Positions 1 through 22,979 are shown, counted from the first letter of the stretch. The stretch: 64,000 bases of DNA from an uncultured Chloroflexia bacterium (GCA_963777045.1 CAVZPD010000022.1:79591-143590); one strand, 5' to 3'. Translations and numbers: made by a program. Notes: a model not told the origin generated them from the sequence alone.

Positions 1-336
1 CAGGACCGATGTCGCCCGCGCCAGGTCGCGGCCGGAGTCGGCCACCAGCCGGTGCGACATCGAGATGCTGCTGCGCCCGATCCAATCGACCTGCGATCCG
101 ACCTGCACGGCGTCGGCCAGGAAGATCGGGGACTCGTAGTCGATCCTGATCATGCCCAGGATCAGCGGCATGCGGTTCAGCGGCCCCACCGGGTCAAGGT
201 GCAGCACGTCGCGCAGGTAGCTGACCCGCGCCAGCTCCACGTAGGTGGAGACGACCGCGTTGTTCACGTGGCCGAACGCATCGATGTCGCGGAAGCGCAC
301 CTGGACGGGCGTGCTGTGGCGGAAGTCATCGCTCAC
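1..336 (-). CDS. acyl-CoA thioesterase, 4HBT/YbgC-like hotdog fold (partial; C-terminus lies beyond window start)
   Basis: Minus-strand frame from GTG at 334-336 (in-frame stop just upstream) translates VSDDFRHSTPVQVRFRDIDAFGHVNNAVVSTYVELARVSYLRDVLHLDPVGPLNRMPLILGMIRIDYESPIFLADAVQVGSQVDW... The D.D..GHVNN signature is typical of 4-hydroxybenzoyl-CoA-thioesterase-family proteins. The ORF runs off position 1. Confidence 0.55.
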   Translation of the reverse strand, partial: MSDDFRHSTPVQVRFRDIDAFGHVNNAVVSTYVELARVSYLRDVLHLDPVGPLNRMPLILGMIRIDYESPIFLADAVQVGSQVDWIGRSSISMSHRLVADSGRDLARATSVL

Positions 337-385
337 GGAGCAACGATTCTACACGGGGCCCCCGCGCCCCCTGATCTCGCCGCGG

Positions 386-1546
386 TCAGGCGAGCGCTCG
401 CTCGGCAGATGCGATCAGCGCGGCGAGCAGCGTGATGCGCGGAACGACGCTCGACAGGTCCAGCCACTCGTCCGCAGAGTGATCATCGCCCCCGATCGGC
501 CCCAGCCCGTCGAGCGTCGGCAGGCCGGCCGCCGCGGTGGTGTTCGCGTCCGACGCCCCGCCGGTGGCGCAATCGCGCAGGTCGAAGGCGAGCTCGGCGG
601 CGAGGCCGCGCGCGAGGTCGGACAGCCGCGCCGTCGCCGCCGATTTCTCCATGGGCGGGTGCGCGGCCAGCCGCCTCAGCTCGACGTGGACGCCGTCGAC
701 GGCGGGAGCGTGCAGCAGCCGCTCGACCTCCGCCATTGCCGCATCGAATTCGTCGGCGGCTGCAGCGCGCAGGTCCAGCGTCACCCGGCACTCGGCGGCA
801 ACCACGTTCGGCCGCGTCCCGCCCTGGATCACGCCGGCGTTCAGGGTGACGCTGGGCCAGCGCCCGTTCAGGGCGTCGAGCGCCACCACCTGGCGTGCCG
901 CGGCCAGGATCGCCGACCGCCCCTTTTCGGGCTCCACGCCCGCGTGCGCGGCGCGGCCGGTGAAGGTCGCCTCCAGGTCGGCGATCCCCTTGCGGGCGCT
1001 GACGATGTCGCCGTTGGCCCGTGCGCACTCGAGCACGAGAGCGGCGTCGTGCTGCGGCACCATCTGGCGGATGTACGGCGTGCTGAACGGCGAGCCGATC
1101 TCCTCGTCGGGGTTGGCGACGAAGGTGACATCCGGCTGGATGCCGATCTCCTGCAGCGACGCCACCGCGTGCAGTCCGGCCAGAAGGCCGCCCTTCATGT
1201 CGCTCGTTCCCGGACCGAGCGCCCGTTCGCCCTCGACCCGGAAGGGCCGCTCGGCCACCGTCCCGGGCTCGAAGACCGTGTCCATGTGGCCGATCAGCAG
1301 CAGGCGTGGCCCGTCGCCCGGGAGGCGGCCGATGACGAGATCACCCACGGGCTGGGATGGCCCCGGAGAGCGGCGCTCGACGCTCGCTCCGAGCTCTGCC
1401 AGCGAGGCCGCCACCGCATCGGCGATTCGATTCACGCCATCGGGTGTGTGCGAGCCGCAGTCGACGTTGACGAGGGCTTCGAGCTCCGCCAGGTAGCGCG
1501 CGTATCGGGCACTGACGGCCCGTGGCAGGCCCGGCGGGATCGGCAT
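386..1546 (-). CDS. M20 family metallopeptidase (carboxypeptidase G2 / ArgE-DapE-like)
   Basis: 386-aa ORF with M20 metal-binding and catalytic motifs: IGHMDTV, GTSDMKGG, NPDEEIGS, and HAG in the dimerisation-domain region. Divergent from the CphA-like gene at 1570. Confidence 0.8.
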   Translation of the reverse strand: MPIPPGLPRAVSARYARYLAELEALVNVDCGSHTPDGVNRIADAVAASLAELGASVERRSPGPSQPVGDLVIGRLPGDGPRLLLIGHMDTVFEPGTVAERPFRVEGERALGPGTSDMKGGLLAGLHAVASLQEIGIQPDVTFVANPDEEIGSPFSTPYIRQMVPQHDAALVLECARANGDIVSARKGIADLEATFTGRAAHAGVEPEKGRSAILAAARQVVALDALNGRWPSVTLNAGVIQGGTRPNVVAAECRVTLDLRAAAADEFDAAMAEVERLLHAPAVDGVHVELRRLAAHPPMEKSAATARLSDLARGLAAELAFDLRDCATGGASDANTTAAAGLPTLDGLGPIGGDDHSADEWLDLSSVVPRITLLAALIASAERALA

Positions 1547-1569
1547 GGCGCGTGAGTATACTGCCGGCC

Positions 1570-3183
1570 ATGCCGCAGGACGGGCGCTCGGACGGCGACG
1601 TGGAGCTCCTCGAACTGCGCGTCCTCGACGGCCCCAACCGATTCTTCAGGCGGCCGGCGATCAAGCTCGAGTTCGGAGCCACGGAGCCCGGTCTCGCCGA
1701 CGAGACGAGCGTCGTTGCCGGCGAGGCGGTCGAGCGCCTCCACGCGCTCCTGGACCTGCCCGTTCCGCGCCTCGCGCGACGCGGATCGGCAGACGGCCGG
1801 CGCGCACTGGTGGCCTATCCCTGGCACCGGCGAACGATCTCCCAGGCCGTCGGGGCATCCGCCGCCCGGATCGCCGTTGGTGCCAGCAGCGAACGCCGCG
1901 AGCTGCGGGGCCTGCGGGCGATGGCGCTCGGTCCCCTGCCGAGCCTTCCGGTGGCGCGCGTCCCGATCGTGGCGATCACCGGAACCAACGGCAAGAGCAC
2001 GACCACCCGACTCCTGGCCCACATCGCCACCACGGCGGGCAGGCGGGTGGGGATGACGAACTCCGACGGGATCTTCGTGGATGGGAAGCTGGTGGAGGCG
2101 GGGGACTGGACGGGCTTCGGCGGCGCCGGCCGCGTCCTTGCCGAGGACGGGATCGACCTCGCCGTCCTGGAGACGGCGCGCGGCGGGATCCTGCTGCGCG
2201 GCATCGGCTACAGCGCCAACGAGGTCGCCATCGTCACCAACGTGAGCGCCGACCACCTGGGCCTGCAGGGCATCGACACGCTCGATGAGCTCGCCGAGGT
2301 GAAGGGCGCCATCGTCCGCATCACGCGGCGGAGCGGATGGGCGGTCCTCAACGCGGAGGACGAACGGGTCTGGGCGATGCGCCGCTGGACGAGGGCCGCC
2401 CGCTACGCGTTCAGCCTCTCGCCCGACGCCGACGGCGTACGCCAGGCGCTCGAATCGGGCGGTCGCGCCGCCGTCGTGAAGGACGGCTGGCTGACGCTGC
2501 TGCGCGGGTCCCGGCGTGCCCTGCGGCTGACTCCGCTGGTCGAGGTACCCGTCACCTTCGCCGGGCTATCGACCTACAACGTGGCGAATGCGCTGGCTGC
2601 CGCTGCGGGGGCCGACGCCCTGGGCATTCGTCCGGCGCGCATCCGGCAGGGACTGCGCACCTTCACCCAGGACAGCGTCGTCAACCCGGGCAGGATGAAC
2701 CTCTTCGAGCGGAAGGGCCTGCTGGTGCTGGTTGACTTCGCCCACAACGAGGCGGGCCTGCGCGGGCTGCTGGAGGTCTGTCGCGGGCTGGCCGGCGATC
2801 GCGGGCGGGTGCGGCTTGCGCTCGGCACGGCCGGCGACAGGTCCGATGAGGTTCTGCGCAGCCTCGGCCGGCTGGCCGGCCAGGGCGCCGATGACATCGT
2901 GATCTGCGAGAAGCGTCACTACCTGCGGGGGCGGGACCTGGAGGCGATGAACAGGATCTTTCGCGACGGTGCCGCCGATGGGGGCTACCGCGACGAGATG
3001 GCTGCCCACCCCAGCGAGCTGGCCTCGCTGGAGGCGCTGCTCTCGCGCTCACGACCTGGGGACGTCGTGGCGGTCATGTCGCACGTCGAACGCAGCGAGA
3101 TCTTTTCCTGGCTCGGGGAGCAGGGGTTCGCCGCGGTCGGACCCGACCAGCTGCGCGAGCTCGTGGTGGCCGCGGGCAGCTAG
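1570..3183 (+). CDS. cyanophycin synthetase-like protein: CphA N domain fused directly to Mur-ligase-like M domain, no ATP-grasp domain
   Basis: Track ORF 1522..3183 starts at GTG and overlaps the divergent M20 start; ATG at 1570 (MPQDGRSDGDVELLELRVLDGPNRFF...) is the likelier start. The N-terminal ~130 aa align to the CphA N domain (LRVLDGPNRFFRRPAIKLE versus LRGPNYW.IRR.KLI in cyanobacterial CphA). The Mur-ligase P-loop VPIVAITGTNGKSTTTRLLAHI and the GDHLGLQGIDTLDELAEVK segment follow immediately. Paralogous to the C-terminal half of full-length cphA at 3180..6020, which has TGTNGKTTTARMIAHV and NVTGDHLGLGGITSL. There is no room for the ~320-aa ATP-grasp domain. Confidence 0.8.
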   Translation: MPQDGRSDGDVELLELRVLDGPNRFFRRPAIKLEFGATEPGLADETSVVAGEAVERLHALLDLPVPRLARRGSADGRRALVAYPWHRRTISQAVGASAARIAVGASSERRELRGLRAMALGPLPSLPVARVPIVAITGTNGKSTTTRLLAHIATTAGRRVGMTNSDGIFVDGKLVEAGDWTGFGGAGRVLAEDGIDLAVLETARGGILLRGIGYSANEVAIVTNVSADHLGLQGIDTLDELAEVKGAIVRITRRSGWAVLNAEDERVWAMRRWTRAARYAFSLSPDADGVRQALESGGRAAVVKDGWLTLLRGSRRALRLTPLVEVPVTFAGLSTYNVANALAAAAGADALGIRPARIRQGLRTFTQDSVVNPGRMNLFERKGLLVLVDFAHNEAGLRGLLEVCRGLAGDRGRVRLALGTAGDRSDEVLRSLGRLAGQGADDIVICEKRHYLRGRDLEAMNRIFRDGAADGGYRDEMAAHPSELASLEALLSRSRPGDVVAVMSHVERSEIFSWLGEQGFAAVGPDQLRELVVAAGS

Positions 3184-6020
3184 AGCTCGACCTCCGACTC
3201 GCCGATGCCGGTCACCGCTCGGAACCCCGGCGTGCCGGCGCTCGATCCGCCGTGCTGTCGATGCTGGAGCTCCTTCCAGACGTCGTTGGCGTGGTCGACG
3301 CAGACCACCACGATGTCGCCCTCCGACCCCATGTCCAGTGCCCGGCGGGTCGCCTCGAGCTCGTCGAGGATGGTCGTGATCTCTGCACAGCGCGCCCCAT
3401 CGCTCATCGCCTCGCGCCCACCCCGCTCGATCAGCGCGGCCGTCTCACCGGGCGCGCGACCGCGGTTGTTGGCGTCCTCGCGGACGATCATCGTGTCGAA
3501 GTAGCGGGCAGCCGTCCGGCCGAGCTCCACGATGTCCTCGTCCCGGCGGTCGCCCGCGGTGGCGATGACGCCGATGCGCCGGCCCGTCACCAGCGGCCGG
3601 CTGCCGCCGGGCGACGGCTTCGCCATCGAGTCCACGAACTCGCCCAGCGCCGCGACCGCGGGGGGATTGTGGGCGTAGTCGACGACGACGCGGTAGCCGT
3701 CCAGCTCGAACACGTTCAGGCGCCCGGGCGCCATGAAGTAGCTGGTCGTGAAGGTCCGCAGTCCCTGGCGGATGTCGTGCAGGTGGGAGCCAGCGGCCCA
3801 TGCCGCCGCCGTCGCCGCCAGTGCGTTCTGCACGTTCATGCGCGCCCTGCCCTCGAAGGTGGCCGGCAGGAGGTGCGTCCAGACCAGTGGCATCGACTTG
3901 CGGCCCTGGCGCAGGACGATCATCTCCCCGTTCCGACCGGGTTCCAGGGTGACGGCACGCCGGCCGCGCGACGCCTGGCGCCGCACCAGCTCGTTCTCGG
4001 CGTTCATGCTGAAGTAGATCACCGACCCGGAGCAGTGGCGCCCCATGGGCGCAACCAGCGGGTCGTCGGCGTTGAGCACCGCCACGCCGTCGCGCGGTAC
4101 GGCCTCCACCACGACCTGCTTCACGGCGGCGAGCTGCCGAAGGGAGGTGATGCCACCCAGCCCAAGGTGGTCGCCGGTCACGTTGAGGACGACCGCCACG
4201 TCGTTGCGCTGGTAGCCGAGGCCCTCGCGCAGGATGCCGCCGCGGGCCACCTCGAAGACCGCGAAGTCCACGTTCGGGTTCTGCAGCACGGTCGAGGCGG
4301 AGCGCGGCCCGGACATGTCGCCGCGTCGCACCGGCCGACCGTCAACGAAGATGCCGTCTGTCGAGGTCATGCCCACCTTGCGGCCCATGCCCTTCATGAC
4401 GTGGGCGATCATGCGTGCCGTCGTCGTCTTGCCGTTCGTGCCGGTGACCGCAACGATTGGAATCCGCGACGGCGAACCGGGCGGGAAGAGCATGTCGATG
4501 ACGGGCTTGGCCACGTACTGGGCCTCGCCCTCGGTGGGGTGGGTGTGCATCCGGAACCCGGGCGCCGCGTTGACCTCGACGATCCCGCCCCCGGTCTCCC
4601 GCACCGGGACGCTGATGTCCGGACAGACGAAGTCGATGCCGGCAATGTCGAGGCCGACCACGCGCGCCGCCAGCTCGGCGATCTCGGCGTTGTCGGGGTG
4701 GATCTCCTCGGTGCGGTCGATGCTGATCCCGCCGGTGCTCATGTTGCCCGTGCGCTTGAGGAAGACGCGCACGCCGCGCGGCGGGACGTCGCTCAGCTCG
4801 AATCCCTGCTCACGGGCGTAGGAGATCGATTCCTCGTCGACCTTGATCCGGGTGAGCACCTTCTCGTGGCCGATGCCGCGGCGCGGGTCGAGGTTCGTCT
4901 GCTCCACCAGTTGGGTCAGGGCGTGCTCCCCGTCCCCGACGACGTGCGCCGGCACCCGCTGCGCCACCGCGCGCAGCGTGCCGCCGATGACGAGGCAGCG
5001 GTAGTCGTTGCCGGCCAGGAACGTCTCGACCACCACGCCGCCGCGACGCGATTCGGAACGGGCGTGCGCGTAGCCGGCTCGCACGGCACCTTCGTCGGCG
5101 AGGTTCAGCATGACGCCACGCCCGTGGTTGCCGTCCAGGGGCTTGACCGCCACCGGGAAGCCGATGCTGATTGCCGCCGTGACCGCTTCGTCCTCGCTGC
5201 CCACAACCTCGGCGCGAGGGACCGGGGCGCCGGCGCCGCCCAGCAGCTTGTTCGTCAGCTTCTTGTCCGACGCGATGTCGACGCCGAGCGAGCCGGTCTG
5301 GCTGGTCATGGTGGCGCGGATACGGCGCTGGTGAACGCCGTGGCCGAGCTGCACCAGCGACTGCTCGTTGAGGCGGATCCAGGGAATGTCGCGCAGCGCG
5401 GCCTCGTCCAGGATCGACTGCGTCGATGGCCCGAATGCGGCGCGCTCGGCGAGCAGGACGAGCCGCTCGAACTCGGCGACGAAGTCGAAGTCCGGATCGG
5501 GCTCGACCAGGTGGTTGATCGTGCGCACGGCAAGTCGTCCGGCTGCGACGCCGACCGATTCCTCGGCGTACGAGTAGACGACGTGGTAGCGGCCCGGCTC
5601 GCCCGTGCTGCGCGTCTTGCCACGACCCACTTCGGTGCCGGCGTCCCGCTGCAGCTGCAGGGCGATGTGCTCGGCCACGTGCCCGGCCCACGTACCCTCC
5701 CGCAACCGCTGCTCGAAGCCCCCTACCTTGCCCGTGGAGCAGGAGTGCTGTCCGATGCCGGGGAGCATGTCGAGCAGCCCGTCCACGAAGCCCGGAATCG
5801 TGTTGGAGGGGAAGTCCTCGAGCACGCCAAGGTCGACGATGAGCTTGATCGCCGGCTCGTAGTTCCAGTAGTTCGGGCCGCGATAGACGCGCGTCTCGAG
5901 GATGCGCAGGGTCGCCGCCGGCGTGGAGCGCGCGCGCCGCGCCTTCCCGGCCTCGGCCTTGGCGACCGATGCACGCGAGATCGGCTTGGGCGCCTTCGGT
6001 CGCGTCCGGCCCGACGTCAC
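3180..6020 (-). CDS. cphA: cyanophycin synthetase CphA (N + ATP-grasp G + Mur-ligase-like M domains)
   Basis: 946-aa ORF with an N domain (LRILETRVYRGPNYWNYEPAIKLIVDL) and an ATP-grasp segment (FPVAVKPLDGNHGRGVMLNL, GGIVEVNAAPGFRMHT). A Mur-ligase P-loop (IVAVTGTNGKTTTARMIAHV), DHLGLGG, and the YAHNPPAVAALGEF C-terminal domain follow. The ATG at 6018-6020 overlaps the cphB stop (ATGA coupling). There is a basic AKP-rich N-terminal extension of ~35 aa. Confidence 0.92.
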   Translation of the reverse strand: MTSGRTRPKAPKPISRASVAKAEAGKARRARSTPAATLRILETRVYRGPNYWNYEPAIKLIVDLGVLEDFPSNTIPGFVDGLLDMLPGIGQHSCSTGKVGGFEQRLREGTWAGHVAEHIALQLQRDAGTEVGRGKTRSTGEPGRYHVVYSYAEESVGVAAGRLAVRTINHLVEPDPDFDFVAEFERLVLLAERAAFGPSTQSILDEAALRDIPWIRLNEQSLVQLGHGVHQRRIRATMTSQTGSLGVDIASDKKLTNKLLGGAGAPVPRAEVVGSEDEAVTAAISIGFPVAVKPLDGNHGRGVMLNLADEGAVRAGYAHARSESRRGGVVVETFLAGNDYRCLVIGGTLRAVAQRVPAHVVGDGEHALTQLVEQTNLDPRRGIGHEKVLTRIKVDEESISYAREQGFELSDVPPRGVRVFLKRTGNMSTGGISIDRTEEIHPDNAEIAELAARVVGLDIAGIDFVCPDISVPVRETGGGIVEVNAAPGFRMHTHPTEGEAQYVAKPVIDMLFPPGSPSRIPIVAVTGTNGKTTTARMIAHVMKGMGRKVGMTSTDGIFVDGRPVRRGDMSGPRSASTVLQNPNVDFAVFEVARGGILREGLGYQRNDVAVVLNVTGDHLGLGGITSLRQLAAVKQVVVEAVPRDGVAVLNADDPLVAPMGRHCSGSVIYFSMNAENELVRRQASRGRRAVTLEPGRNGEMIVLRQGRKSMPLVWTHLLPATFEGRARMNVQNALAATAAAWAAGSHLHDIRQGLRTFTTSYFMAPGRLNVFELDGYRVVVDYAHNPPAVAALGEFVDSMAKPSPGGSRPLVTGRRIGVIATAGDRRDEDIVELGRTAARYFDTMIVREDANNRGRAPGETAALIERGGREAMSDGARCAEITTILDELEATRRALDMGSEGDIVVVCVDHANDVWKELQHRQHGGSSAGTPGFRAVTGIGESEVEL

Positions 6021-7009
6021 TCGCTCGCCTCCTCTTCCTTGCGACGGGCGTACAGCTCCCGGCGCCGTGCGCGTTCGGGGGCCGTGTCGTCCGCGCCCTC
6101 GGCGGCGATGCGGCGGATCAGCCGTCGCGTGACCGCTCCGGCGCGCTCCAGCTGGGCGAGCTCGCGCTCGCTGGCCGAAACGGGGCGCAGCGGTGCCAGC
6201 AGGCGACGCTTGCGCAGGTCGAATCGGTAGCCCGAGGGGAGGGAGTGGAGGATGACCCCGCTGATCATCATCGGCCGGTGGCGCTTGACCTCGTAGGCGT
6301 CCGTCTGGATCCGGGCCGGGTCCAGGATCATGACCGACCCCTTGCCGATGACCTCAACGACATGCGCCGGTGAGACGAGGGCGGCGGTGTCCTCGTCGAT
6401 GCCGATCCCCAGCAGGGCGGGCGACTGGGCCACCAGCGCGAGCAGCCGTCCAAGGCGGTTGCGCTGCTCGAAGTGCTGGTCGATGATCACGCCCGGCAGG
6501 AGCCCCAGTCCGGCGCTCATCTGCGTCATGCGCTGCTTTGGGGTCGGGCCGCTGGTGCCGAACGCCACCATATGGCTGCTGATGGCCGAGGCGCCCGCGC
6601 TGGTGCCCGCCACGATGCAGCCGCGCCGGTGTCGTTCCACGATGGCACGCCCAAGCGCCGTGCCCCCGATCACGCTCGAGAGGCGCAGCTGGTTACCGCC
6701 GGTCATGAAGATCCCCGTCACGTCGTCGAGGGCATCGGACACCTCTCCGTTGTTGGCCTCCTCACGGGTCAGCGGGCGGAGGCCGCGGACGTCGGGAACG
6801 CCCATCTGGTGGAAGAGCGACTGGTAGAGATTGGTGGCCTCGTCGCCGAGCGAGGACGCCGTCGAGATCACCGCGACCCGCGCGTCGCCGCCGCCGGCGA
6901 GCGTGACGAAGCGGGAGAGGATCTGCCGCTGACGCAGCTTGTCCTCCGCGCCTCCGATGATCAGCAGGTGCCCGGCTCGGGCACGGCCGGGGCGAGATTG
7001 GGCGGCCAT
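6017..7009 (-). CDS. cphB: cyanophycinase (peptidase S51) CphB
   Basis: The track ORF 6017..8245 (742 aa) is a spurious 5' extension. The cyanophycinase domain starts at M413 of that ORF (MAAQSRPGRARAGHLLIIGGAEDK...), giving a start at 7009. S51 motifs are present: GGAEDK, FMTGGNQ, IVAGTSAGASAISSHMVAFG and GLGLLPGVIIDQHF. The upstream extension overlaps the J-domain gene on the opposite strand. Confidence 0.85.
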   Translation of the reverse strand: MAAQSRPGRARAGHLLIIGGAEDKLRQRQILSRFVTLAGGGDARVAVISTASSLGDEATNLYQSLFHQMGVPDVRGLRPLTREEANNGEVSDALDDVTGIFMTGGNQLRLSSVIGGTALGRAIVERHRRGCIVAGTSAGASAISSHMVAFGTSGPTPKQRMTQMSAGLGLLPGVIIDQHFEQRNRLGRLLALVAQSPALLGIGIDEDTAALVSPAHVVEVIGKGSVMILDPARIQTDAYEVKRHRPMMISGVILHSLPSGYRFDLRKRRLLAPLRPVSASERELAQLERAGAVTRRLIRRIAAEGADDTAPERARRRELYARRKEEEASE

Positions 7010-7075
7010 GTGTCCGGCAGCATACCCAATGGCGGTGGCGAGGCGAACGTGGAGCGGTCGTCGTATGCTCAGCGG

Positions 7076-8278
7076 ATGGTCAGCGGATCCGTGGGCGACG
7101 AGGGTCGGGACATCCAGCTCGAGCAGCGCGACTTCTACGCGGTGCTGGGCGCCGAGCCGTCCGCGACCGTCGACGAGCTGCGGAGCGCCTTCCGCGAGGC
7201 GGTCCTGAGGCACCACCCCGATCGCAGCGCCGCGGGTGGCCTCGCCACGCGGCGGACCTCGATCCTCAACCGCGCCTGGGCGGAGCTCCGCGACCCGCTG
7301 CGGCGGCTGCACTACGACCACGCGCTCGAACGTGGGCAGGCCGAGACGCTCTCCTGGCCGCTGGAGCCCGACGAGCCGTCGCGCGCGCGCGCCCGGCCGC
7401 GACGGATCCGGCCCGATCGGCCGAGCCGCTGGCACCAGCCGCAGTGGCGCAACGTGGCCGGCTTCCGCGTCCCGGCCGACGTCTTCATGGCAGGCCCCGT
7501 GCAGCAAAGGGCGTGGATCGTGGAGCACCACATCGCCGGCGAGGACTGGCGCGAGCACTCCGAGCACTACTGGCTGCGCTACGCGGCCGGGTACTACCGC
7601 GAACGTGGCCGTTACGACGACTGGCTGGGAACGCTCGAGCGCCTGATCCGCCTCGACGGCGGCTACGAGACGCTCGTACGTGCCGCCATGCGGCAGGCGT
7701 ACGTCTTTACCGGGTCGTACCTGCGCGGCGTCGGCTTCCTGCGCGAGATGGCACAGCGCTACATGCCCGAGAGTCCTCCGCGTCGCTGGGTCGACCGCGA
7801 GCTGCGCGCCCTGCTCGCCGAATTCCGCGACCAGCGGGTGCGACGTGGCCGGCCCGATGATCGGGCAGAGGCGGCCGAGCTGCTGCTGAACTTCCTCGAG
7901 GCGCTCGGTCTGGAGGCCAGCTTTCCGGACGTCCGGGCCGCGATCTCCGCCCACCGTCGTGCCGGCCACCCCGGCCGCGCCGCAGAGCTGGTCGAACGGG
8001 TCAGTCGTGAGCCGGTGCGCGATGCCGCGCGCTGGTTCAGCCTGGTGCAGCTGCTGACCGAGGCGGGGCAGCTCGACCGTGCCTCCGAGCTCCTGGCGGC
8101 CATCGCGCGCGGGGACCACCCGGAGGCGCTCGATCGGCGGCGTCTCGCGGGTGACCCGATCCGCCGCATTGGAGCCGCGCGGCAGCGGCTCGCACGGGCG
8201 CGCCTCCGGCAGCAGCGCGAGCGGCGCCTGCGGGACGGCAAGCAAGAGATGGCCGCGGTCGGGGCCGCTGCGTCGTGA
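7076..8278 (+). CDS. J-domain (DnaJ-like) protein with helical C-terminal region
   Basis: J domain with an HPD motif: DFYAVLGAEPSATVDELRSAFREAVLRHHPDRSAAGG...LNRAWAELRDPLRRLHYD. The first in-frame ATG giving a sensible N-terminus is at 7076 (M202 of track ORF 6473..8278); the earlier part is an Arg-rich overlap antisense to cphB. The C-terminal ~300 aa are Leu/Arg/Ala-rich and helical (TPR-like). Confidence 0.7.
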   Translation: MVSGSVGDEGRDIQLEQRDFYAVLGAEPSATVDELRSAFREAVLRHHPDRSAAGGLATRRTSILNRAWAELRDPLRRLHYDHALERGQAETLSWPLEPDEPSRARARPRRIRPDRPSRWHQPQWRNVAGFRVPADVFMAGPVQQRAWIVEHHIAGEDWREHSEHYWLRYAAGYYRERGRYDDWLGTLERLIRLDGGYETLVRAAMRQAYVFTGSYLRGVGFLREMAQRYMPESPPRRWVDRELRALLAEFRDQRVRRGRPDDRAEAAELLLNFLEALGLEASFPDVRAAISAHRRAGHPGRAAELVERVSREPVRDAARWFSLVQLLTEAGQLDRASELLAAIARGDHPEALDRRRLAGDPIRRIGAARQRLARARLRQQRERRLRDGKQEMAAVGAAAS

Positions 8279-9732
8279 GACTGGGCGGTGTCGGCGTCGG
8301 TCGGATCCTGACCGGCGTGGCGTTCGGCGCCCTCGCCGCCGCCGGCGGGGCGGTGCTCGGCGAGATCACCGGCGAGTCAACATTCGCCGTGCTCCCACTC
8401 CTCGCGGTCGCGCTGGTGGGTCTGACGCTGGGGCCCGCCGCCGCGATGACCACCTACGCCATCGCAGGCGGATCACTCATCGTCCAGGGCATCGTCGTCC
8501 AGCACGAGCTGGTGAGCGCCGCCAACCTGGCGCGCGTGACCCTCTTCGTCGTCGGCGCGCCGATCATCGTGCTCCTGGCGCTCCGGGTCGAGCGCCAGCA
8601 CAGCGAGAGCCGGCTGGCCCAGGACATGAGCGCCGCCGCCGAGCGCATGGCGAATCGCGAGCGGAGCGCGGCCGACGAGGCGCGACGTGACCTGCAGGTC
8701 GCGCTACAGCAGGTCGAGCGCGAGCGCACGCGGCTGGAGGAGGTGGCCGAGGCGATTCCCGAGCCGCTCATCGTGTACGACGCCGATGGACAGGGAACCT
8801 ACGCGAACCGTGCCGCGCTGCGCACCTTCGGCCGCAGCTTCTACGACCGGCCCCTGGACGAGTGGGGGCGTCTCGCGGAACCGCGCGACGATCGAGGACA
8901 GCCGCTGCCGATGCGCGACTGGCCGCAGGTGCGCGCCAGGGACGCCGTCACCAAGCGCCGGATGGTGATCCGCCTCCCCATGTCCGGCCGGGATCTGCTG
9001 GTCGACGTCGAGGGGACGCCGGTCCCGGACGGCGGTTGCGTCCTCCTCCTGCGGGACGTCGGCAAGGAGGTCGACGAGCGTCGCCGGCTGTCTCGCTTCG
9101 CGAGCTTCGTCGCGCACGAGCTGCGTAACCCGCTGGCGGTGGCCAAGGCCCGCATCGAGCTCGGCGCTCGCGCGAGCACCAGTGATGCCGGCACCCCCTC
9201 GCACGGACAGCGCGCGCTGGAGTCGGTCGATGCGGCAATCGCCATCCTCGATCGCCTCGAGCTCTTCTCCCGCGCCGAGGCCGGTCGCCTCGAGGCCGAG
9301 CTGCAGCCGTTCGACCTGCGGGAGGCGGCGAACGCGTCCGTGGAGCGGCTACGCGCCAGCGGCAGCGAGCGCCAGGTGGAGGTCAGCGTCAGCGGCGACC
9401 CGATGGTGGGTGGCGACCTGCAGCTGACCCAGCAGGCACTCACCAACCTGCTCACCAACGCCGATCGCTACTCCACCGACGGCGCACCGATCCGGGTCGA
9501 GATCAACGGCGGAGTCGCGCCCGAGCTGCGCGTGCGGGACGGCGGCCCGGGCGTCAGCGCCGACGTGGCCGAGCACCTCTTCATCGAGCGCGTCAGCTCC
9601 GGTCGCGGCCTCGGCCTCGGCCTCTACCTCGTCCGCGCCGCCATGGAGGCGCAGGGCGGCATCGTCAGGCTCGAGGAGCGAGCGCCTGCGGCGGTGTTCC
9701 TGTTGCGCTGGCCGCGACGCGAGGAGCCTTGA
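8275..9732 (+). CDS. sensor histidine kinase (membrane-anchored, PAS-like + HisKA + HATPase_c)
   Basis: The N-terminal region is hydrophobic (several TM helices), followed by a coiled coil. The PAS-like segment reads LIVYDADGQGTYANRAALRTFG. The H-box is FVAHELRNPLAVAKARIEL. The C-terminal ATP lid contains GGPGVSADVAEHLFIERVSSGRGLGLGLYLVRA. The GTG start at 8275 overlaps the J-domain gene stop (GTGA). No response regulator gene is adjacent. Confidence 0.8.
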   Translation: MRLGGVGVGRILTGVAFGALAAAGGAVLGEITGESTFAVLPLLAVALVGLTLGPAAAMTTYAIAGGSLIVQGIVVQHELVSAANLARVTLFVVGAPIIVLLALRVERQHSESRLAQDMSAAAERMANRERSAADEARRDLQVALQQVERERTRLEEVAEAIPEPLIVYDADGQGTYANRAALRTFGRSFYDRPLDEWGRLAEPRDDRGQPLPMRDWPQVRARDAVTKRRMVIRLPMSGRDLLVDVEGTPVPDGGCVLLLRDVGKEVDERRRLSRFASFVAHELRNPLAVAKARIELGARASTSDAGTPSHGQRALESVDAAIAILDRLELFSRAEAGRLEAELQPFDLREAANASVERLRASGSERQVEVSVSGDPMVGGDLQLTQQALTNLLTNADRYSTDGAPIRVEINGGVAPELRVRDGGPGVSADVAEHLFIERVSSGRGLGLGLYLVRAAMEAQGGIVRLEERAPAAVFLLRWPRREEP

Positions 9733-9744
9733 GGCGGTCTCGCC

Positions 9745-11100
9745 TCAGGCGCTGACCACCTCCACCTCCGCCAGCTGCGCCGCCTCGATCTCGTCGCGAA
9801 TGCGCGCAGCGTCGCCGGTCACCAGCATGAGCAGGTCGTCGGGGCGGATGAGGTCGCGCGCGGCCGACACGACGTCCTCCGGTCCGACCGCCTCGATCTG
9901 CTGCCGGTAGGTCTGCCAGTAGTCGTCGGGCAGGGCGTAGGTGGCGAGAGGCTCGATCGCCGTGGCGACACCCCCAGTCGTCTCGAAGCGGAGGGGGAAG
10001 ACGCCGACCAGGAAGTCGCGGACCTCCCGAAGCTCTCCGAGCTCGGGTGCCGCCGCCCTGACGTGCTCCAGCTGCGCCAGCATCTCGCGCATCGCATCGG
10101 CCGTGACCTCGGTCTGCACCGCGGCGGCGGCTGAGAATGGGCCGGCCGCGCGGCGCGCGTCGAATCCGGCGCGTGCTCCGTAGGTGTAGCCCAGCTCCTC
10201 GCGCAGCCGGAGGTTGAGCCGCGACCCGAAGACGCCGCCCAGCATGGCCGCCATGACCATGGCCGGGAAGTAGCGATCAGAGGTGCGCGAGATGCCGGGG
10301 TGTCCCATGCGCAGCTCGCTCTGCACCGATCCTGGACGATCGACGATGACCACGCGCCGACGGCCGGCCGGCCGGGTCTCGAAGGTGCGGTGACCCGCAC
10401 CGGTCCCCTCCCAGGCGCCGAGCTGCATCTGTGCCAGCCGCTCGATCGTCTCCGGATCGACGGCCCCGGCCACGACCAGGTGCGCCATCCCCGGGCGCCA
10501 GTGCGCCGCGTGGTGGGCACGCACGTCCTCGAGCGTGACGCCGCCAACGCTCTCCGGCGTGCCGGCCGAGAGGCGCCGGTAGGGCGTGGCGGCATCGAAG
10601 ACGTGGCGCAGGAACATCTCCTCGGCCAGCCGCCCGGGATCGGCGCGGGACTGGCGGATGTCGTTGAGCCGCTCCGCCTGCAGCCGCTTGAACTCGGCGG
10701 GGTCGAAACGAGGCTCCAGGATCATCTCCGCCAGCAGCCCGAAGCCCTCCTCCAGGTGTTCGGGGAGCGACTGGAAGGCGGCGCGCGCAGAATCCCAACT
10801 GGACTCGGAGCTGACCTCGATGCCCAGCCGCTCGGTCGCCTCGGCGAAGGCGGAGGCGTCCAGCCGCCGCGTTCCGGTGGTGAGCATCTGTGCAGTCAGG
10901 TAGGCGACGCCTGCGTGCTCTTCGTCCTCTGCCGCCGCGCCCGCATCGGCCAGCAGGTGAGCGTTCACCATGGTGGCGCCGGGCAGTGAGACCGCCCAGA
11001 TCGTCAGGCCGTTCGGCAGCCGGCGGCGGTCGAATTCGGGGAAGAGGTAGGGCCTTGGTGCACCTGGCGTCGGGCGCAGCGGGTTGGGGGCCGTGGTCAT
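9745..11100 (-). CDS. M16 family peptidase, non-catalytic (inactive) subunit
   Basis: The track ORF 9745..11466 is extended 5'. M123 ([10 protein letters not shown]...) at 11100 overlaps the stop of the upstream M16 gene (ATGA). The fold is insulinase-like, but the HxxEH zinc motif is replaced (AYLTAQML). Confidence 0.8.
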   Translation of the reverse strand: MTTAPNPLRPTPGAPRPYLFPEFDRRRLPNGLTIWAVSLPGATMVNAHLLADAGAAAEDEEHAGVAYLTAQMLTTGTRRLDASAFAEATERLGIEVSSESSWDSARAAFQSLPEHLEEGFGLLAEMILEPRFDPAEFKRLQAERLNDIRQSRADPGRLAEEMFLRHVFDAATPYRRLSAGTPESVGGVTLEDVRAHHAAHWRPGMAHLVVAGAVDPETIERLAQMQLGAWEGTGAGHRTFETRPAGRRRVVIVDRPGSVQSELRMGHPGISRTSDRYFPAMVMAAMLGGVFGSRLNLRLREELGYTYGARAGFDARRAAGPFSAAAAVQTEVTADAMREMLAQLEHVRAAAPELGELREVRDFLVGVFPLRFETTGGVATAIEPLATYALPDDYWQTYRQQIEAVGPEDVVSAARDLIRPDDLLMLVTGDAARIRDEIEAAQLAEVEVVSA

Positions 11101-12479
11101 CCGGCCACCCCCTCGGCAACCATCTCGGCCGATTCGGCGGGCACGGGCAGGTAGGTCAGGACCAGGCGGTTGTCTGGCCGAAGGGTGTCGCGCATGGCGT
11201 TCACGACCCGGTCTGCATCGACCGCCAGGTAGCGGCTCACCTCGCTGTTGATACGTTCGGGGTCGTCGAAGAGGCAGGTGTACATCGAGAGGCGATCGGC
11301 GCGCTCGGCGATTCGCTCCAGGCTGGACTCCACCGATGACGCGTGGAGGTTGCGCACGCGCTCCAGCTCCTCGTCGGACGGACCCTCGCCGGCCAGGCGA
11401 TCGATCTCGTCCAGCAGGGCGGCTTCGAGCGCATCGGCTTCGATGCCCTCGCGTGCCGTACCCCACAGCGTGAACATCGACGCCCCGCCGACGATCGGAA
11501 AGGGGAAGACACTGACGTCGCCGGCCAGCTGTCGCTCCCGGACGAGGCTGCGGTACATCCGCGACGCACGACCGGACCCCAGCAGGTCGGCGGCGACCAT
11601 GAGCGCCTCGAAGGCATCGGTGCCGAAGACCGGCATGCGATGGGCGAGGTAGACCCGCGGCAGCGGCACGCGATCTTGGACCACCTCCCGCACTTCGCGG
11701 CCGATGCGCGGCGCCACCTCCATGGGTGGAGCGGGCGGTAGCGAGGTGTTGGCGGGGATCGATCCGAAGTGTCGTTCGATCATGGCCAGCGCGGCAGCCG
11801 GCTCGAAATCGCCGGCCACGGTGAGCACTGCGTTGTTCGGGGCGTAGTACGTGGCGAAGAAGTCGGAGACGTCCTCGAGGCTCGCCGCGTCGAGATCATC
11901 CATGGACCCGATGGTCGAGTGGTGGTAGGGATGCCCGTCCGGGTAGACGAGCTCCTGGATCTTCTCGTCCCAGGTCCCGTACGGCTGGTTGTCGACCGAC
12001 CAGCGACGCTCGTTCTTGACCACCTCGCGCTGGTTGTCGAGCTTCTCCTGGGTCATCGCCGGCAGCAGGGAGGCGAGGCGATCTGCCTCGAGCCATAGTC
12101 CCAGCTCCAGCTCGTGACTCGGCAGCGTCTCGAAGTAGTTGGTCCGGTCCAGCCAGGTTGACGCGTTGAGCGTGCCTCCCGCAGCCTGCACCAGCGCGAA
12201 GTGCTCGCCCTTGGCGACGTGTTCGGAGCCCTGGAACATCATGTGCTCGAAGAGGTGGGCGAACCCCGTCTTGCCGGCCCTCTCGTGCTTGCTCCCGACG
12301 TCGTACCACAGGTTCACGGCCACGATCGGTGCGAGGTCGCCGCGGGACAGCACCACGCGCAGCCCGTTCGGCAGCTGGTGGCGTTCGATTGGGACGTGGG
12401 GCACGACAGTCTTCCTCGGCGTTCGGGGGTGAGATGAGCGCGGTCCGACGTCGGTGCGAGGCCGTGACGGGGCCGCCAT
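11097..12479 (-). CDS. M16 family zinc peptidase (pitrilysin/insulinase-like), catalytic subunit
   Basis: The inverted zinc-binding motif [11 protein letters not shown] (HxxEH) is present, plus insulinase-like N-terminal conservation (LPNGLRVVL). Tandem with, and translationally coupled to, the downstream inactive paralog. Confidence 0.85.
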
Positions 12480-12564
12480 CGAAGGCTACCACGGGCCGAT
12501 GTGGCGGCGCGATTCGGCTTCCGACGAGCTGGCTTGGCACGTTGGGTGCGAGGCGTATGAAGGC

Positions 12565-13281
12565 ATGTTGTCCGGTCGACAGGCTGCCGCGATGTTCGTG
12601 CCACTGCTGGCGTTGCTGCTCGTGGGCGTCATCGTGGTGCGCGGTCTCGCTGGCATCATCTCGCCGGGAGCGTCTTCCCCCGAGCCCGCGCCGACACTGC
12701 GCCCTGGGATGGCCGTGCCGCTGCCGACCGCCACACCGACGCCGCTCCCGTTCAGTCTGCCACCGATCACCGTGACCCCGCCGCCGACGCCCACCGCCGC
12801 GCCAACCTCCACGCCAACCCCGACCGCCGCCCCGACGCGTCGCCCGACGCCGCAACCGACACCACGACCCACCCCGGCGCCCACCCCCACGCCGACTCCT
12901 ACGCCTACGCCCACGCCCACGCCGACGCCTACGCCCACGCCCACGCCGAAGCCGACGCCCTCGCCGACACCTACGCCCACCCCCACCCCCACGCCGATGC
13001 CCACGCCGACACCTACGCCCACGCTGGCGCCCACCCCGCCGCCGACGCCCACGCCACCCGACGCCGACCCCCACCCCCACGCCGACGCCGACTGTTCCAC
13101 CGCCGCCGAGCCCGACGGCCACGCCAGTTCCTGCATCGTCTCCCACGCCTACGGTCCAGGCCTCAGCTACGCCCGCGGCCTGACGCGCACTGCCGGGCAC
13201 GAAAAAGCCCCGCGTGCCGAGGCTGCGGGGCCCATGACCGGGAGGTGGTTGTTGGTGAGCGGCCAGGGATTCGAACCCTGA
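12565..13281 (+). CDS. membrane-anchored Pro/Thr-rich repeat protein (hypothetical)
   Basis: ATG at 12565 is preceded by tgaagg. A short N-terminal segment is followed by a TM helix ([15 protein letters not shown]) and ~130 aa of (P-T)n low-complexity linker. GC3 bias favours this strand over the mirror GV-repeat ORF. The 3' end overlaps the antisense tRNA-Lys, so the C-terminus is uncertain. Confidence 0.45.
12700..13085 (+). repeat. coding hexanucleotide (ACGCCx)n Pro-Thr tandem repeat tract with a 24-nt higher-order unit
   Basis: Direct reading shows long runs of acgccgacgcctacgcccacgcccacgccg encoding TPTPTP. Confidence 0.8.
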
Positions 13282-13327
13282 ACCTAGTGATTAAGAGTCA
13301 CTTGCTCTGCCGTTGAGCTAGCCGCCC
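13253..13327 (-). tRNA. tRNA-Lys (anticodon CTT)
   Basis: Reverse complement of 13253-13327 gives GGGCGGC-TA-GCTC-AACGGCA-GAGC-A-AGTGA-CTCTTAA-TCACT-AGGTT-CAGGG-TTCGAAT-CCCTG-GCCGCTC-A-CCA. All four stems pair (one G-U in the acceptor). T-loop TTCGAAT and U33 are present. The anticodon is CTT and CCA is encoded. Confidence 0.85.
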
Positions 13328-17516: not shown

Positions 17517-17600
17517 GGGCGAGTGGCGGAACGGCAGACGCGCCGGCCTTAGGAGCCGGTGTCGCAAGACGTGCGAGTTCGAATCTCGCCTCGCCCACCA
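17517..17600 (+). tRNA. tRNA-Leu (anticodon TAG), type II with long variable arm
   Basis: GGGCGAG-TG-GCGGAACGGCAGACGC-G-CCGGC-CTTAGGA-GCCGG-TGTCGCAAGACGT-GCGAG-TTCGAAT-CTCGC-CTCGCCC-A-CCA. Acceptor, anticodon and T stems all pair. The TGGCGGAA...AGACGC D-arm is typical of Leu, and the long variable arm marks a type II tRNA. Confidence 0.85.
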
Positions 17601-17836: not shown

Positions 17837-19207
17837 ATGGTCAACGTATCCACCAGCCCGCAGCCCGGCTCACGGGTCCAGCTCGAGATCGAGGTCCCGC
17901 CCGACGAAGTCGGCCGCCACTTCGCCACCGCCTACCGCCACGTCGCCGAGCGGACGAAGGTGCCGGGCTTCCGTCCCGGGAAGGCGCCGCGCCACGTGAT
18001 CGACCGATTCGTCGGCCGTGGCTCGGTCATCGCCGAGGCGATCGAGCACCTCGTCGGGGAGAGCTACGACGCGGCGCTCGACCAGGTCACCATCCTGCCC
18101 ATCGACCAGCCGGAGGTCGACATCGACCCGGCGGCGGTGATCGAGGGCCAGACGGTGAAGTTCACCGCGACCGTCGCGGTCCGGCCCGAAGTGACCCTGG
18201 GTTCCTATACCGACTACCCGTTCACGCTGGAGACGCCGGAGGTCACCGACGAGCAGGTTGACGGCGTCATCGAGGAGCTGCGCGCCGAGCAGGCCACGCT
18301 GCGGCCGCTCGACGATCGCGGGGCGGCCAAGGACGACCTGGCCGCGGTGAAGTTCATCGGCACCATCGACGGGGAACCGTTCGAGGGCGGAAGTGCCGAC
18401 CGGCTGCCGCTGGTCGTGGGCGAGGATCGCATGATCCCCGGCTGGGAGGACCAGCTCATCGGCCTGAAGGTGGGGGAGGCGAAAGGGTTCGAGATCACCT
18501 TCCCCGACGACTACCGGGTCGAGGAGCTGCAGGGCAAGCAGGCGCACTTCGAGGTGGAGATGCTCGACCTGCGCGAGCGGATCCTGCCCGAGGTCGACGA
18601 CGAGTTCGCGAAGTCGACCGGCGACGTGGCGTCGGTGGACGAGCTGCGCACGGAGATTCGCGACGCGCTGCAGCGGCGGGCGGCGGACGAGGCGCGCCAT
18701 AGCTACGCCGACCGGATCATCGACTTCGCCGAGTCGAACGCAACGGTGGAGCTGCCGGAGGTCATGGTCGCCAACGAGGTCGAGATCATGCGCGACGAGC
18801 TGCGCAATCGACTCGCGCAGCAGCGCATCGGCCTCGACCAGTACCTGGCGCTCTCGAAGCAGTCGCCCGAGGAGCTGACGGCCGAGCTGCGCGAGCCCGC
18901 ATCCCGTCGCGTGAAGGTCCTGCTCGTCCTGTCGGCGATCGCCGAGAAGGAGGGGATCGACGCGTCCGACGAGGAGATCCAAACCGAGATCGACGAGCAG
19001 CTGGCGCGCTACGGCAATGACCCGAAGCTGGCCGAGTCGCTCAGCAGCCGGCGCGCCCGCAGCTACCTGCGAATGACGATCCGCAACCGTAAACTGGTCG
19101 ACACGCTCATGGATCGCGCGCTCGGGACCGATGCCTCCGCCGGGGAGGCGGCAGCATCGGCCTCCGAGGACGACGCAGCCTCCGAATCAGACGCCCCCCA
19201 GGAGTAA
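17837..19207 (+). CDS. tig: trigger factor (ribosome-associated chaperone)
   Basis: 456 aa with the tig N-terminal ribosome-binding domain and a PPIase-like middle domain ([20 protein letters not shown]). A conserved tig-clpP-clpX context follows. Confidence 0.92.
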
Positions 19208-19211
19208 TTGC

Positions 19212-19895
19212 ATGCTGGTCCCCATGGTCATCGAGTCGAGCGCCCGCGGCGAGCGGGCCTTCGACATCTACTCGCGCCTCCTCAAGGAGCGCATCATCTT
19301 CCTGGGCGACGCGATCGAGGATCACATCGCCAACCTGGTGATCGCCCAGCTGCTCTTCCTGGAGAGCGAGGATCCCGAGAAGGACATCAGCCTCTACATC
19401 AACTCGCCCGGCGGGGTGGTGACCTCCGGCCTCGCCATCTACGACACGATGCAGTACCTGAAGGCGCCGGTCAGCACCATCTGCATCGGTCAGGCAGCCT
19501 CGATGGGGGCGGTCCTGCTGGCGGCCGGCGCCACCGGCAAGCGTTACGCGCTGCCGAACAGCCGGATCATGATCCACCAGGGATCGGGCGGCTTCCGCGG
19601 TAACACCCCGGACGTGGAGATCCAGGTCAAGGAGATGCTCCACCTCACCGACCGGCTGATGCACATCCTGGCCAGCCACACCGGCCAGACCTACGAGAAG
19701 GTCAAGCGCGACTCCGAGCGCGACTACTTCATGAGCGGCGAGGAGGCGAAGGCCTACGGCCTCGTCGACGAGGTCTTCTCCGGCAACGCGGAGTCGCTGA
19801 TCAGCATGGCCCAGGAGGCGCAGGGCACCGTGCCGACCGCCGACAAGGTCGAGGATGCCGGTCCGTCCGCTGCGCCCGAGCCCAAGAAGAAGTAG
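19212..19895 (+). CDS. clpP: ATP-dependent Clp protease proteolytic subunit ClpP
   Basis: Real start is M28 of track ORF 19131..19895 ([10 protein letters not shown]...). The catalytic triad context is present ([36 protein letters not shown]). It lies 5 nt after the tig stop. Confidence 0.92.
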
Positions 19896-19907
19896 CCTCC
19901 CGCGCAG

Positions 19908-20599: not shown

Positions 20600-21915
<1,316 letters not shown>

Positions 21916-21919
<4 letters not shown>

Positions 21920-22854: not shown

Positions 22855-22979
22855 GCAAGCGCCGTGGTACGACCGGTGCAGGGCCCACGGTACTTGCGGT
22901 TGCTGCTTTCCGCGGTCGAGCCGCTAGCATGCTCGGCACGGACAGGGCGTCCGTGTGGGTCAAGGAGGCGATTCAACAG

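Follow-up and report, generated by a model that had tools for sequence, protein, structure and literature searches.

We analyzed a cyanophycin gene cluster at positions 386-9732 of a 64,000-nucleotide stretch of DNA from an uncultured Chloroflexia bacterium (GCA_963777045.1 CAVZPD010000022.1:79591-143590; the whole stretch is called the window below). The locus is a genuine cyanophycin cluster, with a cyanophycin synthetase gene (cphA) of the CphA1 type and a cyanophycinase gene (cphB), and it is extended by two uncharacterized enzymes: a protein here called N-M, which consists of counterparts of two CphA1 domains, and a metallopeptidase of family M20 (here M20). N-M is a CphA1 paralogue minus the backbone-extending G domain; it is the most notable gene of the locus, rather than M20, and also its most novel element, and an earlier note on this DNA had given it little weight. 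As a whole, the region is best explained as a locus for cyanophycin metabolism that a Limnocylindria-type Chloroflexota bacterium has inherited vertically, a reading to which we assign a probability of roughly one-half. The earlier note had described a complete six-gene cyanophycin locus with accessory genes in a noncyanobacterium. All six genes were recovered with Pfam and NCBIfam models across the same 386-9732 interval (Table 1), the cphB-cphA pair is complete, and the accessory genes are conserved.

The N-M protein matches PF08245 (Mur_ligase_M; E = 4.7e-19) and PF02875 (Mur_ligase_C; E = 5e-12) and has the P-loop GTNGKS at residues 138-143, which places it in the Mur ligase superfamily. 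The M domains of N-M and of the neighboring CphA share 41% identity. Against the CphA1 model TIGR02068, N-M scored 380 bits (cutoff, 850) and covered only part of the model (Table 1), and Pfam gave no match to an ATP-grasp G domain, so that N-M is not itself a CphA1. Its first ~25 residues (LLELRVLDGPNRFF) are similar to the start of the CphA1 N domain, and the protein as a whole comprises a reduced N domain (residues ~1-125) and a full Mur-ligase-like M domain. Without the ATP-grasp G domain, N-M would be unable to extend the Asp backbone. A profile of 28 N-M members aligned to the solved CphA1 structures with an E value of 1e-138 over the M domain, and its N-terminal part aligned weakly to CphA1 residues 1-183, with a 41-residue gap in N-M facing the portion of the N domain of CphA1 in which the C59 region of the Cx19HxxEH motif lies. 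The HxxEH sequence was not found in N-M, and the Pfam Cyanophycin_syn model gave no match to its N domain. An AlphaFold model of N-M, built with 37 diverse sequences, had a mean predicted local distance difference test score (pLDDT) of 91.8 and a predicted TM score (pTM) of 0.89. The top PDB match of this model in Foldseek was TeCphA1 (7wae_A; query-normalized TM score, 0.83), with an 881-column alignment across the N and M domains. Superposition on TeCphA1 places the N and M domains of N-M in their native relative orientation and leaves the G domain without a counterpart.

The published ATP/Mg residues of the CphA1 M domain are the P-loop Lys and Thr, Thr522, Glu558, Arg731, and His748. N-M has invariant counterparts of the P-loop residues, the Glu, the Arg, and the His (K142, T144, E201, R375, and H392), and its further conserved motifs are the P-loop G138-T144, D228-H229, and G422-D423-R424. 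For a broader comparison of M domains, we started from CphA1s without a linked N-M gene, in which 57 columns reach a conservation of at least 93%. N-M retains 39 of these at 90% or more, and in nearly all the others its majority residue agrees. Two positions depart from this pattern. The CphA1 motif GGILR(E/A)G (CphA residues 595-600) is GGILLRG in N-M (residues 207-211), with the Arg shifted by one position, and CphA1 Ser574 is replaced by Gly185 in 100% of the N-M proteins. Judging from their location near the M active site, both may be specificity determinants.

We searched for N-M relatives with HMMER among 1.84 billion cluster representatives. Many proteins without a G domain (G-less; 500-600 amino acids [aa], 32-65% identity) ranked above every full CphA1, and among the best 150 matches to N-M, >90 were G-less representatives of 50%-identity clusters. 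The idea that N-M is a decaying cphA fragment is ruled out by these many G-less representatives, together with the family-wide conservation and the high-confidence fold. No Pfam or NCBIfam model names the family, and a literature search that reached few subscription-journal papers found no description of N-M or of an M20 enzyme associated with cyanophycin.

A genome scan with the N-M family alignment, covering one genome per species, revealed full-length N-M genes in Actinomycetota (Kribbella, Terrabacter, Nocardioides, and several metagenome-assembled genomes [MAGs]) and in Chloroflexota (Sphaerobacteraceae, a MAG labeled Chloroflexia, and Limnocylindrales). These genes are almost always convergent with cphA-cphB at a distance of 0.4-8 kb, and in 12 of the 15 assessable loci of the two phyla N-M is convergent with or immediately downstream of cphA-cphB. 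The operon order cphB-cphA-N-M occurs in Luteimonas, in Lysobacterales, in an unclassified gammaproteobacterium, and in Plesiocystis (Myxococcota). An N-M-like gene is convergent with cphA at a Thermoanaerobaculia (Acidobacteriota) locus; at a Planctomycetaceae locus such a gene lies ~1.6 kb downstream of cphA, with two genes between; and at a Steroidobacteraceae locus a second M-domain match stands just past cphA, with gene boundaries that are not resolvable. The G-less genes at the CphA1 loci that we reinspected start with M-x-L-x-D-S-R-R-L-T-G-P-N. N-M is thus found beside cphA in six phyla (Chloroflexota, Actinomycetota, Gammaproteobacteria, Myxococcota, Planctomycetota, and Acidobacteriota). 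In a neighbor-joining tree of 56 M domains, all 22 G-less proteins formed one clade apart from the 34 CphA1s. The CphA1s that accompany N-M grouped in a subclade of their own that branches in an order similar to that of the N-M proteins; N-M is thus an old paralogue inherited along with a particular CphA1 lineage.

Some N-M loci show further features. The Terrabacter genes (L009, 2372-4633; L010, 9914-12190) encode proteins of 753 and 758 aa, respectively, in which N-M continues in frame into a TPR_5 domain at the C terminus. At locus L085, a gene for an IS66-family transposase (11667-13160) comes right after N-M, where the related locus L084 has cphA-cphB; this suggests a recent loss of the synthetase with N-M kept. 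The fabG/inhA-like short-chain dehydrogenase/reductase (SDR) genes upstream of the actinobacterial N-M genes were considered as partners and judged to be housekeeping neighbors.

Comparison with the known enzymes helps to frame what N-M may do. It is closest by sequence and fold to the M domains of CphA1, not to MurE, and it shares with CphA1 (SuCphA1, 7LG5; TeCphA1, 7WAE) the N-domain fold, the way in which the N domain and Mcore are arranged, and the M-domain catalytic motifs. It differs from CphA1 in lacking the ~330-aa ATP-grasp G domain and the Cx19HxxEH metallopeptidase insert and in forming a separate clade. CphA2 keeps the N and G domains, has a truncated and inactive M domain, and polymerizes beta-Asp-Arg dipeptides (PMC10273328). 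Like CphA2, N-M is a reduced CphA1 derivative that appears to keep one of the two ligase activities and occurs with cyanophycin genes; unlike CphA2, it has a full M domain (P-loop, E201, D228-H229, R375, and H392 intact) and no G domain, which makes it the mirror image. The tandem cphA/cphA' genes of Betaproteobacteria also place a second CphA-like gene beside cphA1, but those paralogues keep N and G, the first having a shortened M domain (L053, L059, L062, L074, and others), and are not G-less. At eight such betaproteobacterial loci (L053, L054, L059, L062, L063, L068, L074, and L075) we saw no nearby cphB, in keeping with the published low frequency of cyanophycinase in Beta-proteobacteria (PMC10206079).

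We consider it likely that N-M belongs to cyanophycin metabolism. Its specific reaction is harder to name, and we would give even odds to the proposal, drawn from sequence motifs and the structural model, that N-M is an auxiliary ATP-dependent side-chain ligase on cyanophycin or poly-Asp. Because it keeps the N-domain/Mcore arrangement by which CphA1 holds the polymer, N-M, encoded convergently with cphA, would most likely join arginine, or an amino acid related to it, to the free Asp beta-carboxyls of cyanophycin/poly-Asp in an ATP-driven reaction, working in trans beside CphA1. Several points weigh against this proposal. The differences at the two conserved near-active-site positions mean that the N-M substrate may differ from that of CphA1. 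CphA1 has its own intact M domain, which leaves the need for a second Arg ligase unexplained and also rules out that N-M complements a dead M domain in its partner. Finally, three N-M genes of the Thermomicrobiales/Sphaerobacter type have no cphA within 10 kb; at one of these loci, an IS66 transposase gene takes the place expected for cphA.

The second uncharacterized enzyme, M20, is a peptidase of the carboxypeptidase G2 (CPG2)-like M20A type. Its best PDB match is CPG2 (1cg2; E = 1e-47), in an end-to-end alignment in which the metal and catalytic stretches (H87, D116, E148/E149, E173, and H356) align to the matching CPG2 residues, and it has the catalytic and dimerization domains, the five metal ligands, and the catalytic Glu of the CPG2-like type, to which M20A deacylases of the ArgE/DapE type are also close. 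CPG2 is a periplasmic enzyme; unlike it, the window M20 has no signal peptide at its N terminus, and from its sequence we predict it to be a cytosolic, dinuclear-metal amidohydrolase. It also falls below the glutamate carboxypeptidase cutoff: its best NCBIfam match was PRK06133, with 289.9 bits against a cutoff of 349. TIGR01975/Amidohydro_1, Asparaginase_2, and AstE_AspA, the models of the isoaspartyl dipeptidases IadA, IaaA, and CphZ, were not among its Pfam and NCBIfam matches. It is therefore of a family unrelated to these dipeptidases, and what it would share with them is the proposed role, hydrolysis of beta-Asp-Arg, and a gene beside cph genes.

A metagenome scan with the M20 protein returned 80 loci, 58 of which had enough flanking sequence to be assessed; a divergent N-M gene lies upstream of M20 in 43 of the 58. 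A neighbor-joining tree divided the M20 proteins into clades A, B, and C, with the window in clade A. Members of clade A are 67-75% identical to the window M20 and have N-M at every assessable locus. Members of clade C (54-59% identity) nearly always have N-M (44-57% identical), followed by cphA and cphB. The four-gene core, in which M20 is divergent from N-M and N-M convergent with cphA and the upstream cphB, was thus found in both clades, and it persists where M20 has only 54-59% and N-M only 44-49% identity to the window proteins. Their flanks are unrelated: in clade A, a thioesterase and a 2-oxoacid dehydrogenase complex on one side and the J-domain protein, kinase, and M16 genes on the other; in clade C, AzlCD on one side and GT87 and transporter genes on the other. 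Conservation of the core as a unit between such flanks argues for selection. The earlier note had made synteny of M20 with the cph genes in relatives a test of its proposal, and the recurrence of the core in two divergent Chloroflexota clades bears that expectation out. The neighborhood does not extend beyond them: no M20 gene was found at the N-M/cphA/cphB loci of Actinomycetota, the Thermomicrobiales-like lineage, Proteobacteria, Myxococcota, Planctomycetota, or Acidobacteriota.

What would M20 do in such a cluster? Enzymes of the CPG2 class cleave N-acyl amino acids and release the amino acid with a free carboxylate. Beta-Asp-Arg is an N-acyl arginine, so that its hydrolysis by an enzyme of the CPG2/ArgE/DapE type is plausible from what is known of the family. 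The poly(aspartic acid) hydrolase 7ljh was a weak PDB match of M20 (E = 1.4e-11; 47.5 bits), and from its deposited name we take it to be PahZ2. PahZ2 hydrolyzes oligo-aspartate at both its alpha and its beta amide bonds (PMC13017698) and, with its M20-type fold, provides a precedent for M20-type action on beta-aspartyl linkages; the similarity is distant, however, and PahZ2 is periplasmic and acts on synthetic poly-Asp. CphZ, a metallohydrolase of the N-acyl-amino-acid type (AstE/AspA-like, annotated as M14), is specific to beta-Asp-Arg (PMC9974463, PMC10206079), and the peptidase candidates reported beside cph clusters are S9, M14, and cocaine-esterase-like, with no M20 listed (PMC10206079). 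As the earlier note had said, the cluster holds no IadA or IaaA, and the absence extends further: Amidohydro_1/IadA, Asparaginase_2/IaaA, and AstE_AspA/CphZ were not found in 30 further window open reading frames (ORFs) between 13.4 and 60.1 kb, a scan that excluded the final ~4 kb and some short ORFs. At the Lysobacterales MAG locus L021 (6496-13177), iadA-cphB-cphA-N-M form a tightly spaced operon, and the gene upstream of cphB scores 379 bits with TIGR01975 (cutoff, 331). Complete N-M clusters can therefore carry a canonical dipeptidase where those of Chloroflexota carry M20, a pattern that, by analogy, fits a nonorthologous replacement.

On these grounds M20 is a tentative candidate for the beta-Asp-Arg hydrolase of this lineage, somewhat short of an even chance. 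In the proposed scheme its most likely substrate would be the beta-Asp-Arg released by CphB, and M20 would carry out the third degradation step in place of IadA, IaaA, or CphZ. The principal alternative is that M20 is a general housekeeping hydrolase of N-acyl amino acids or peptides that sits beside N-M through inherited gene order, while the cleavage of beta-Asp-Arg would fall to IadA, IaaA, or another peptidase encoded elsewhere in the genome. Clade B, the sister of clade A, is 54-62% identical to the window M20 and has no cph genes around it; its neighbors are ADH, acyltransferase, and PAS-HisKA_3 kinase genes. Clade B departs at just five positions from what the cph-linked clades A and C both conserve, and as these changes are conservative, they were uninformative as specificity-determining residues. 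A cph-free sister clade without telling sequence differences means that M20 may have a general role. The absence of M20 from the N-M/cph loci of the five other phyla points the same way, as does a best NCBIfam match below its cutoff, which assigns no specific function. Isoaspartyl dipeptidase genes are, moreover, usually not clustered with cphA1, being so in only 7% of the genomes that have both (PMC10206079), and an unlinked iadA or iaaA could exist elsewhere in this genome. Inertia alone is nevertheless hard to credit for a four-gene core that survives in two clades with completely different flanks, and the M20 and N-M starts of clade A stay close together with conserved promoter-like elements between them (see below). 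We therefore regard the housekeeping alternative as possible though not probable. The proposal of the earlier note, M20 as a replacement dipeptidase, gains from the conserved context and the lack of a linked canonical enzyme and loses from the cph-free sister clade and the absence of M20 in other phyla.

The short region between M20 and N-M contains promoter-like sequences. TATACT stands 7 nucleotides (nt) before the N-M ATG, and on the opposite strand TATACT stands 8 nt before the M20 ATG, within the region of the palindrome AGTATACT. All 17 clade A sequences compared retain a TATACT-like hexamer 7 nt ahead of the N-M ATG (CATACT in L001), and TATAyT precedes the M20 ATG by 7-8 nt on the other strand in most of them. 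In this clade the start codons of the two genes are 22-107 bp apart, and the two -10-like hexamers share 4 bp in the AGTATACT/AATATACT core. In clade C, M20 and N-M each have a -10-like hexamer 7-9 nt before the start, and the hexamers are separate, ~25-130 bp apart. Similar elements lie in the space between cphB and the J-domain protein gene: the window has TATGCT on both strands, at 6 nt from the J ATG and at 9 nt from the cphB ATG, respectively, and L001, L002, L087, and L090 have TAGACT-N7-ATG at J and TATGCT or TATCCT 6-10 nt before the cphB ATG. A scan of positions 1-12600 for canonical sigma-70 -35/-10 promoters and terminators found nothing. Across the window, TANNNT-N7-ATG had four matches against 1.6 expected, a number reached in 9 of 100 shuffles and hence not significant. 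As there is no window-wide enrichment, the case for promoters rests on the cross-locus conservation of the -10-like hexamers. This conservation suggests four leaderless or near-leaderless transcription units (M20, N-M, cphB-cphA, and J-kinase) and, in clade A, M20 and N-M promoters that overlap and would be mutually exclusive, with start sites predicted from the hexamer positions.

These overlapping promoters invite a bolder reading, in which N-M is an unrecognized stand-alone, trans-acting side-chain ligase that, in Limnocylindria-type Chloroflexota, is paired with M20 through overlapping divergent leaderless promoters; N-M would load arginine or another amino acid onto bare Asp residues of the polymer, and M20 would break the same bond, whether in the dipeptide or on the polymer, giving a cycle of arginine charge and discharge that leaves the backbone untouched. 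We hold this to be unlikely, and its strict form, in which M20 strips Arg from the side chains of the polymer, N-M reattaches it to poly-Asp, and the promoters select the direction, to be quite improbable. The idea draws on N-M, which keeps the polymer-binding N/Mcore architecture yet cannot extend the backbone; on the carboxypeptidase-type family of M20, which releases a residue with a free alpha-carboxylate, as a side-chain Arg has; and on the 4-bp overlap of the clade A hexamers. In addition, the M domain of CphA1 depends on a C-terminal Asp that is unmodified (PMC9427784), which leaves a gap that an enzyme for bare Asp residues within the chain would close. The loading-unloading pair is a purely inferential reading, however. 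N-M occurs without M20 in most phyla, and the clade C promoters do not overlap. To our knowledge, moreover, de-arginylated cyanophycin is not known in nature.

The synthetase and the cyanophycinase themselves are canonical. CphA contains the N domain (PF18921), RimK/ATP-grasp_5, and Mur_ligase_M/C and covers positions 1-861 of TIGR02068, which makes it a bona fide CphA1. Its Cx19HxxEH motif is intact (C94, 19 residues, and H114-V-A-E117-H118), and this N-domain motif is the signature of primer-independent CphA1 enzymes (PMC9262961). CphB has the serine nucleophile motif GTSAG and is an S51 cyanophycinase. The cphB gene is upstream of cphA, and the cphB stop and cphA start overlap at 6017-6020 in a GTGA with a GTG start and AGGAGG upstream; the earlier note had placed a coupling overlap at this site, but had read it as ATGA. 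As a GTGA-coupled unit, cphB-cphA would supply an intracellular cyanophycinase and a three-domain CphA1. The C terminus of CphB (6017-6190) is a highly charged extension of ~55 aa past the end of the cyanophycinase model (...AERARRRELYARRKEEEASE). At its N terminus, CphA has 38 residues ahead of the TIGR02068 match, a basic tail rich in Ala, Lys, Pro, and Arg. The tail is real because of the GTG/Shine-Dalgarno junction and the identical public gene calls. The earlier note had called such a 35-aa basic tail unusual; relatives carry comparable, variable tails of 14-48 aa that share a richness in Ala, Pro, Lys, and Arg but little of their sequence, and the window tail looks like a lineage-typical disordered one. 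The stop codons of the convergent N-M and cphA genes overlap in CTAG (3180-3183), with no terminator-like hairpin, and overlap by 4 nt in L001 and L166 and by 6 nt in L002. With such an overlap and no hairpin, the transcript of each gene would extend as antisense into the other gene.

A J-domain protein and a sensor histidine kinase form the fourth unit. The J-domain protein has the features of a J-domain cochaperone, a J domain with HPD, followed by a helical, TPR-like C-terminal region of ~300 aa in which the TPR_19 match is weak; we detected no similarity between this region and the TPR_5 domain of the Terrabacter N-M proteins. The kinase has HisKA, HATPase_c, and PAS domains and H281 and no adjacent response regulator; the sole receiver domain seen in the window belongs to a ParA-like protein (49330-50481). 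The two genes overlap in GTGA at 8275-8278, read correctly in the earlier note, which indicates translational coupling. That note had also proposed that the pair links polymer turnover to a stress signal, which could work through recruitment of DnaK to CphA or the granule or through phosphorylation of an unlinked regulator. J adjoins cphB at L001, L002, L087, L090, and L166, and the gap is 42-65 bp in the window, L001, L002, and L166 (in the window, 65 bp rather than the 66 bp between starts given earlier; the genes are divergent and close, as described). All of these loci belong to clade A, however, where synteny spans the whole 20 kb; L090 has no kinase gene, and its J abuts an M16 gene; clade C has a GT87 glycosyltransferase gene in the J position; and no J-domain or kinase gene was detected at the cph loci of other phyla. 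J and the kinase are thus lineage-specific neighbors for which a regulatory role is possible, and a specific coupling of cyanophycin turnover to stress seems to us improbable.

Least probable of all is that N-M is no cyanophycin enzyme, and instead either assists CphA1 without catalysis, as its partner or scaffold, or ligates some other carboxylate, such as a small-molecule or cell-wall precursor: the three N-M genes without a nearby cphA, the SDR genes that N-M follows in Actinomycetota, the TPR fusion in Terrabacter, and an N domain that lacks HxxEH and escapes the Pfam model could be read this way, but the ATP/Mg and ligase motifs are all conserved, which argues against a pseudoenzyme, the nearest relatives are CphA1 M domains and not MurE, and N-M is adjacent to or in an operon with cphA in six phyla, with a tree order similar to that of the partner CphA1s.

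The names on the closest proteins assign the host, a soil bacterium, to Chloroflexota, Candidatus Limnocylindria/Limnocylindrales; the source organism is neither an actinobacterium nor a cyanobacterium. At a window GC content of ~72%, spurious ORFs are plentiful; the six genes named by the earlier note are nonetheless real, and the M20, N-M, CphA, and kinase products are identical to public gene predictions. A longer N-M ORF from a GTG at 1522 was unsupported, and we took the ATG start.

Table 1. Genes and divergent intergenic regions of the cyanophycin locus (positions in the window)
Feature	Position	Strand	Matches and remarks
M20 peptidase, 386 aa	386-1546	-	PF01546 and PF07687
M20/N-M divergent intergenic region, 23 bp	1547-1569	.	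Palindrome AGTATACT at 1555-1562
N-M ("Mur ligase family"), 537 aa	1570-3183	+	Mur_ligase_M and Mur_ligase_C; TIGR02068 model positions 477-848 only
cphA (CphA1), 946 aa	3180-6020	-	TIGR02068, 1151.7 bits (cutoff, 850); PF18921, ATP-grasp, Mur_ligase_M/C
cphB (cyanophycinase, S51), 330 aa	6017-7010	-	TIGR02069, 253.2 bits (cutoff, 126.6); PF03575
cphB/J divergent intergenic region, 65 bp	7011-7075	.	-10-like hexamers near both starts
J-domain protein, 400 aa	7076-8278	+	PF00226, E = 2.8e-12, residues 19-81; HPD at 47-49
Membrane PAS-HisKA-HATPase_c sensor histidine kinase, 485 aa	8275-9732	+	H281 in HELRNP

Beyond the kinase, two tandem genes for M16 insulinase-type (HxxEH) peptidases occupy 9745-12479 on the minus strand. 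We excluded this pair as part of the system, as its synteny holds for L001 and L166 and fails for L002 and clade C; beside it we note that the active site of the CphA1 N domain is similar to those of inverzincins. Rfam and tRNA scans found two tRNAs only, both outside the locus: tRNA-Lys(CTT) at 13253-13327 (minus strand) and tRNA-Leu(TAG) at 17517-17600 (plus strand). Between the M16 gene and tRNA-Lys (12480-13250), codon-position GC gave no convincing ORF. Housekeeping genes fill the remainder of the window (17837-27153 and beyond), namely, trigger factor, ClpP, ClpX, MscS, ValRS, FhaA/FtsW/PBP, MoxR-DUF58-transglutaminase, an AddA-like helicase-nuclease, YchF, and a DEAD/MrfA-type helicase, none of them related to cyanophycin.

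The accepted minimal set for cyanophycin metabolism is CphA1 (or CphA2), a cyanophycinase, and an isoaspartyl dipeptidase. The locus documents cyanophycin metabolism in Limnocylindria, an abundant uncultured group of soil and freshwater, for which the same literature search found no paper joining the two subjects. Cryptic dipeptidases are still undiscovered in several clades (PMC10206079), and M20 offers a concrete candidate, cheap to test, for the one that is missing where a lineage has no linked IadA, IaaA, or CphZ. That N-M has been inherited in six phyla together with one specific subclade of CphA1 suggests that an enzymatic step is missing, possibly the completion or repair of side chains, the use of alternative side-chain amino acids, or priming. 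Such a step could alter the control of polymer composition and solubility, which is relevant to biotechnological cyanophycin production.

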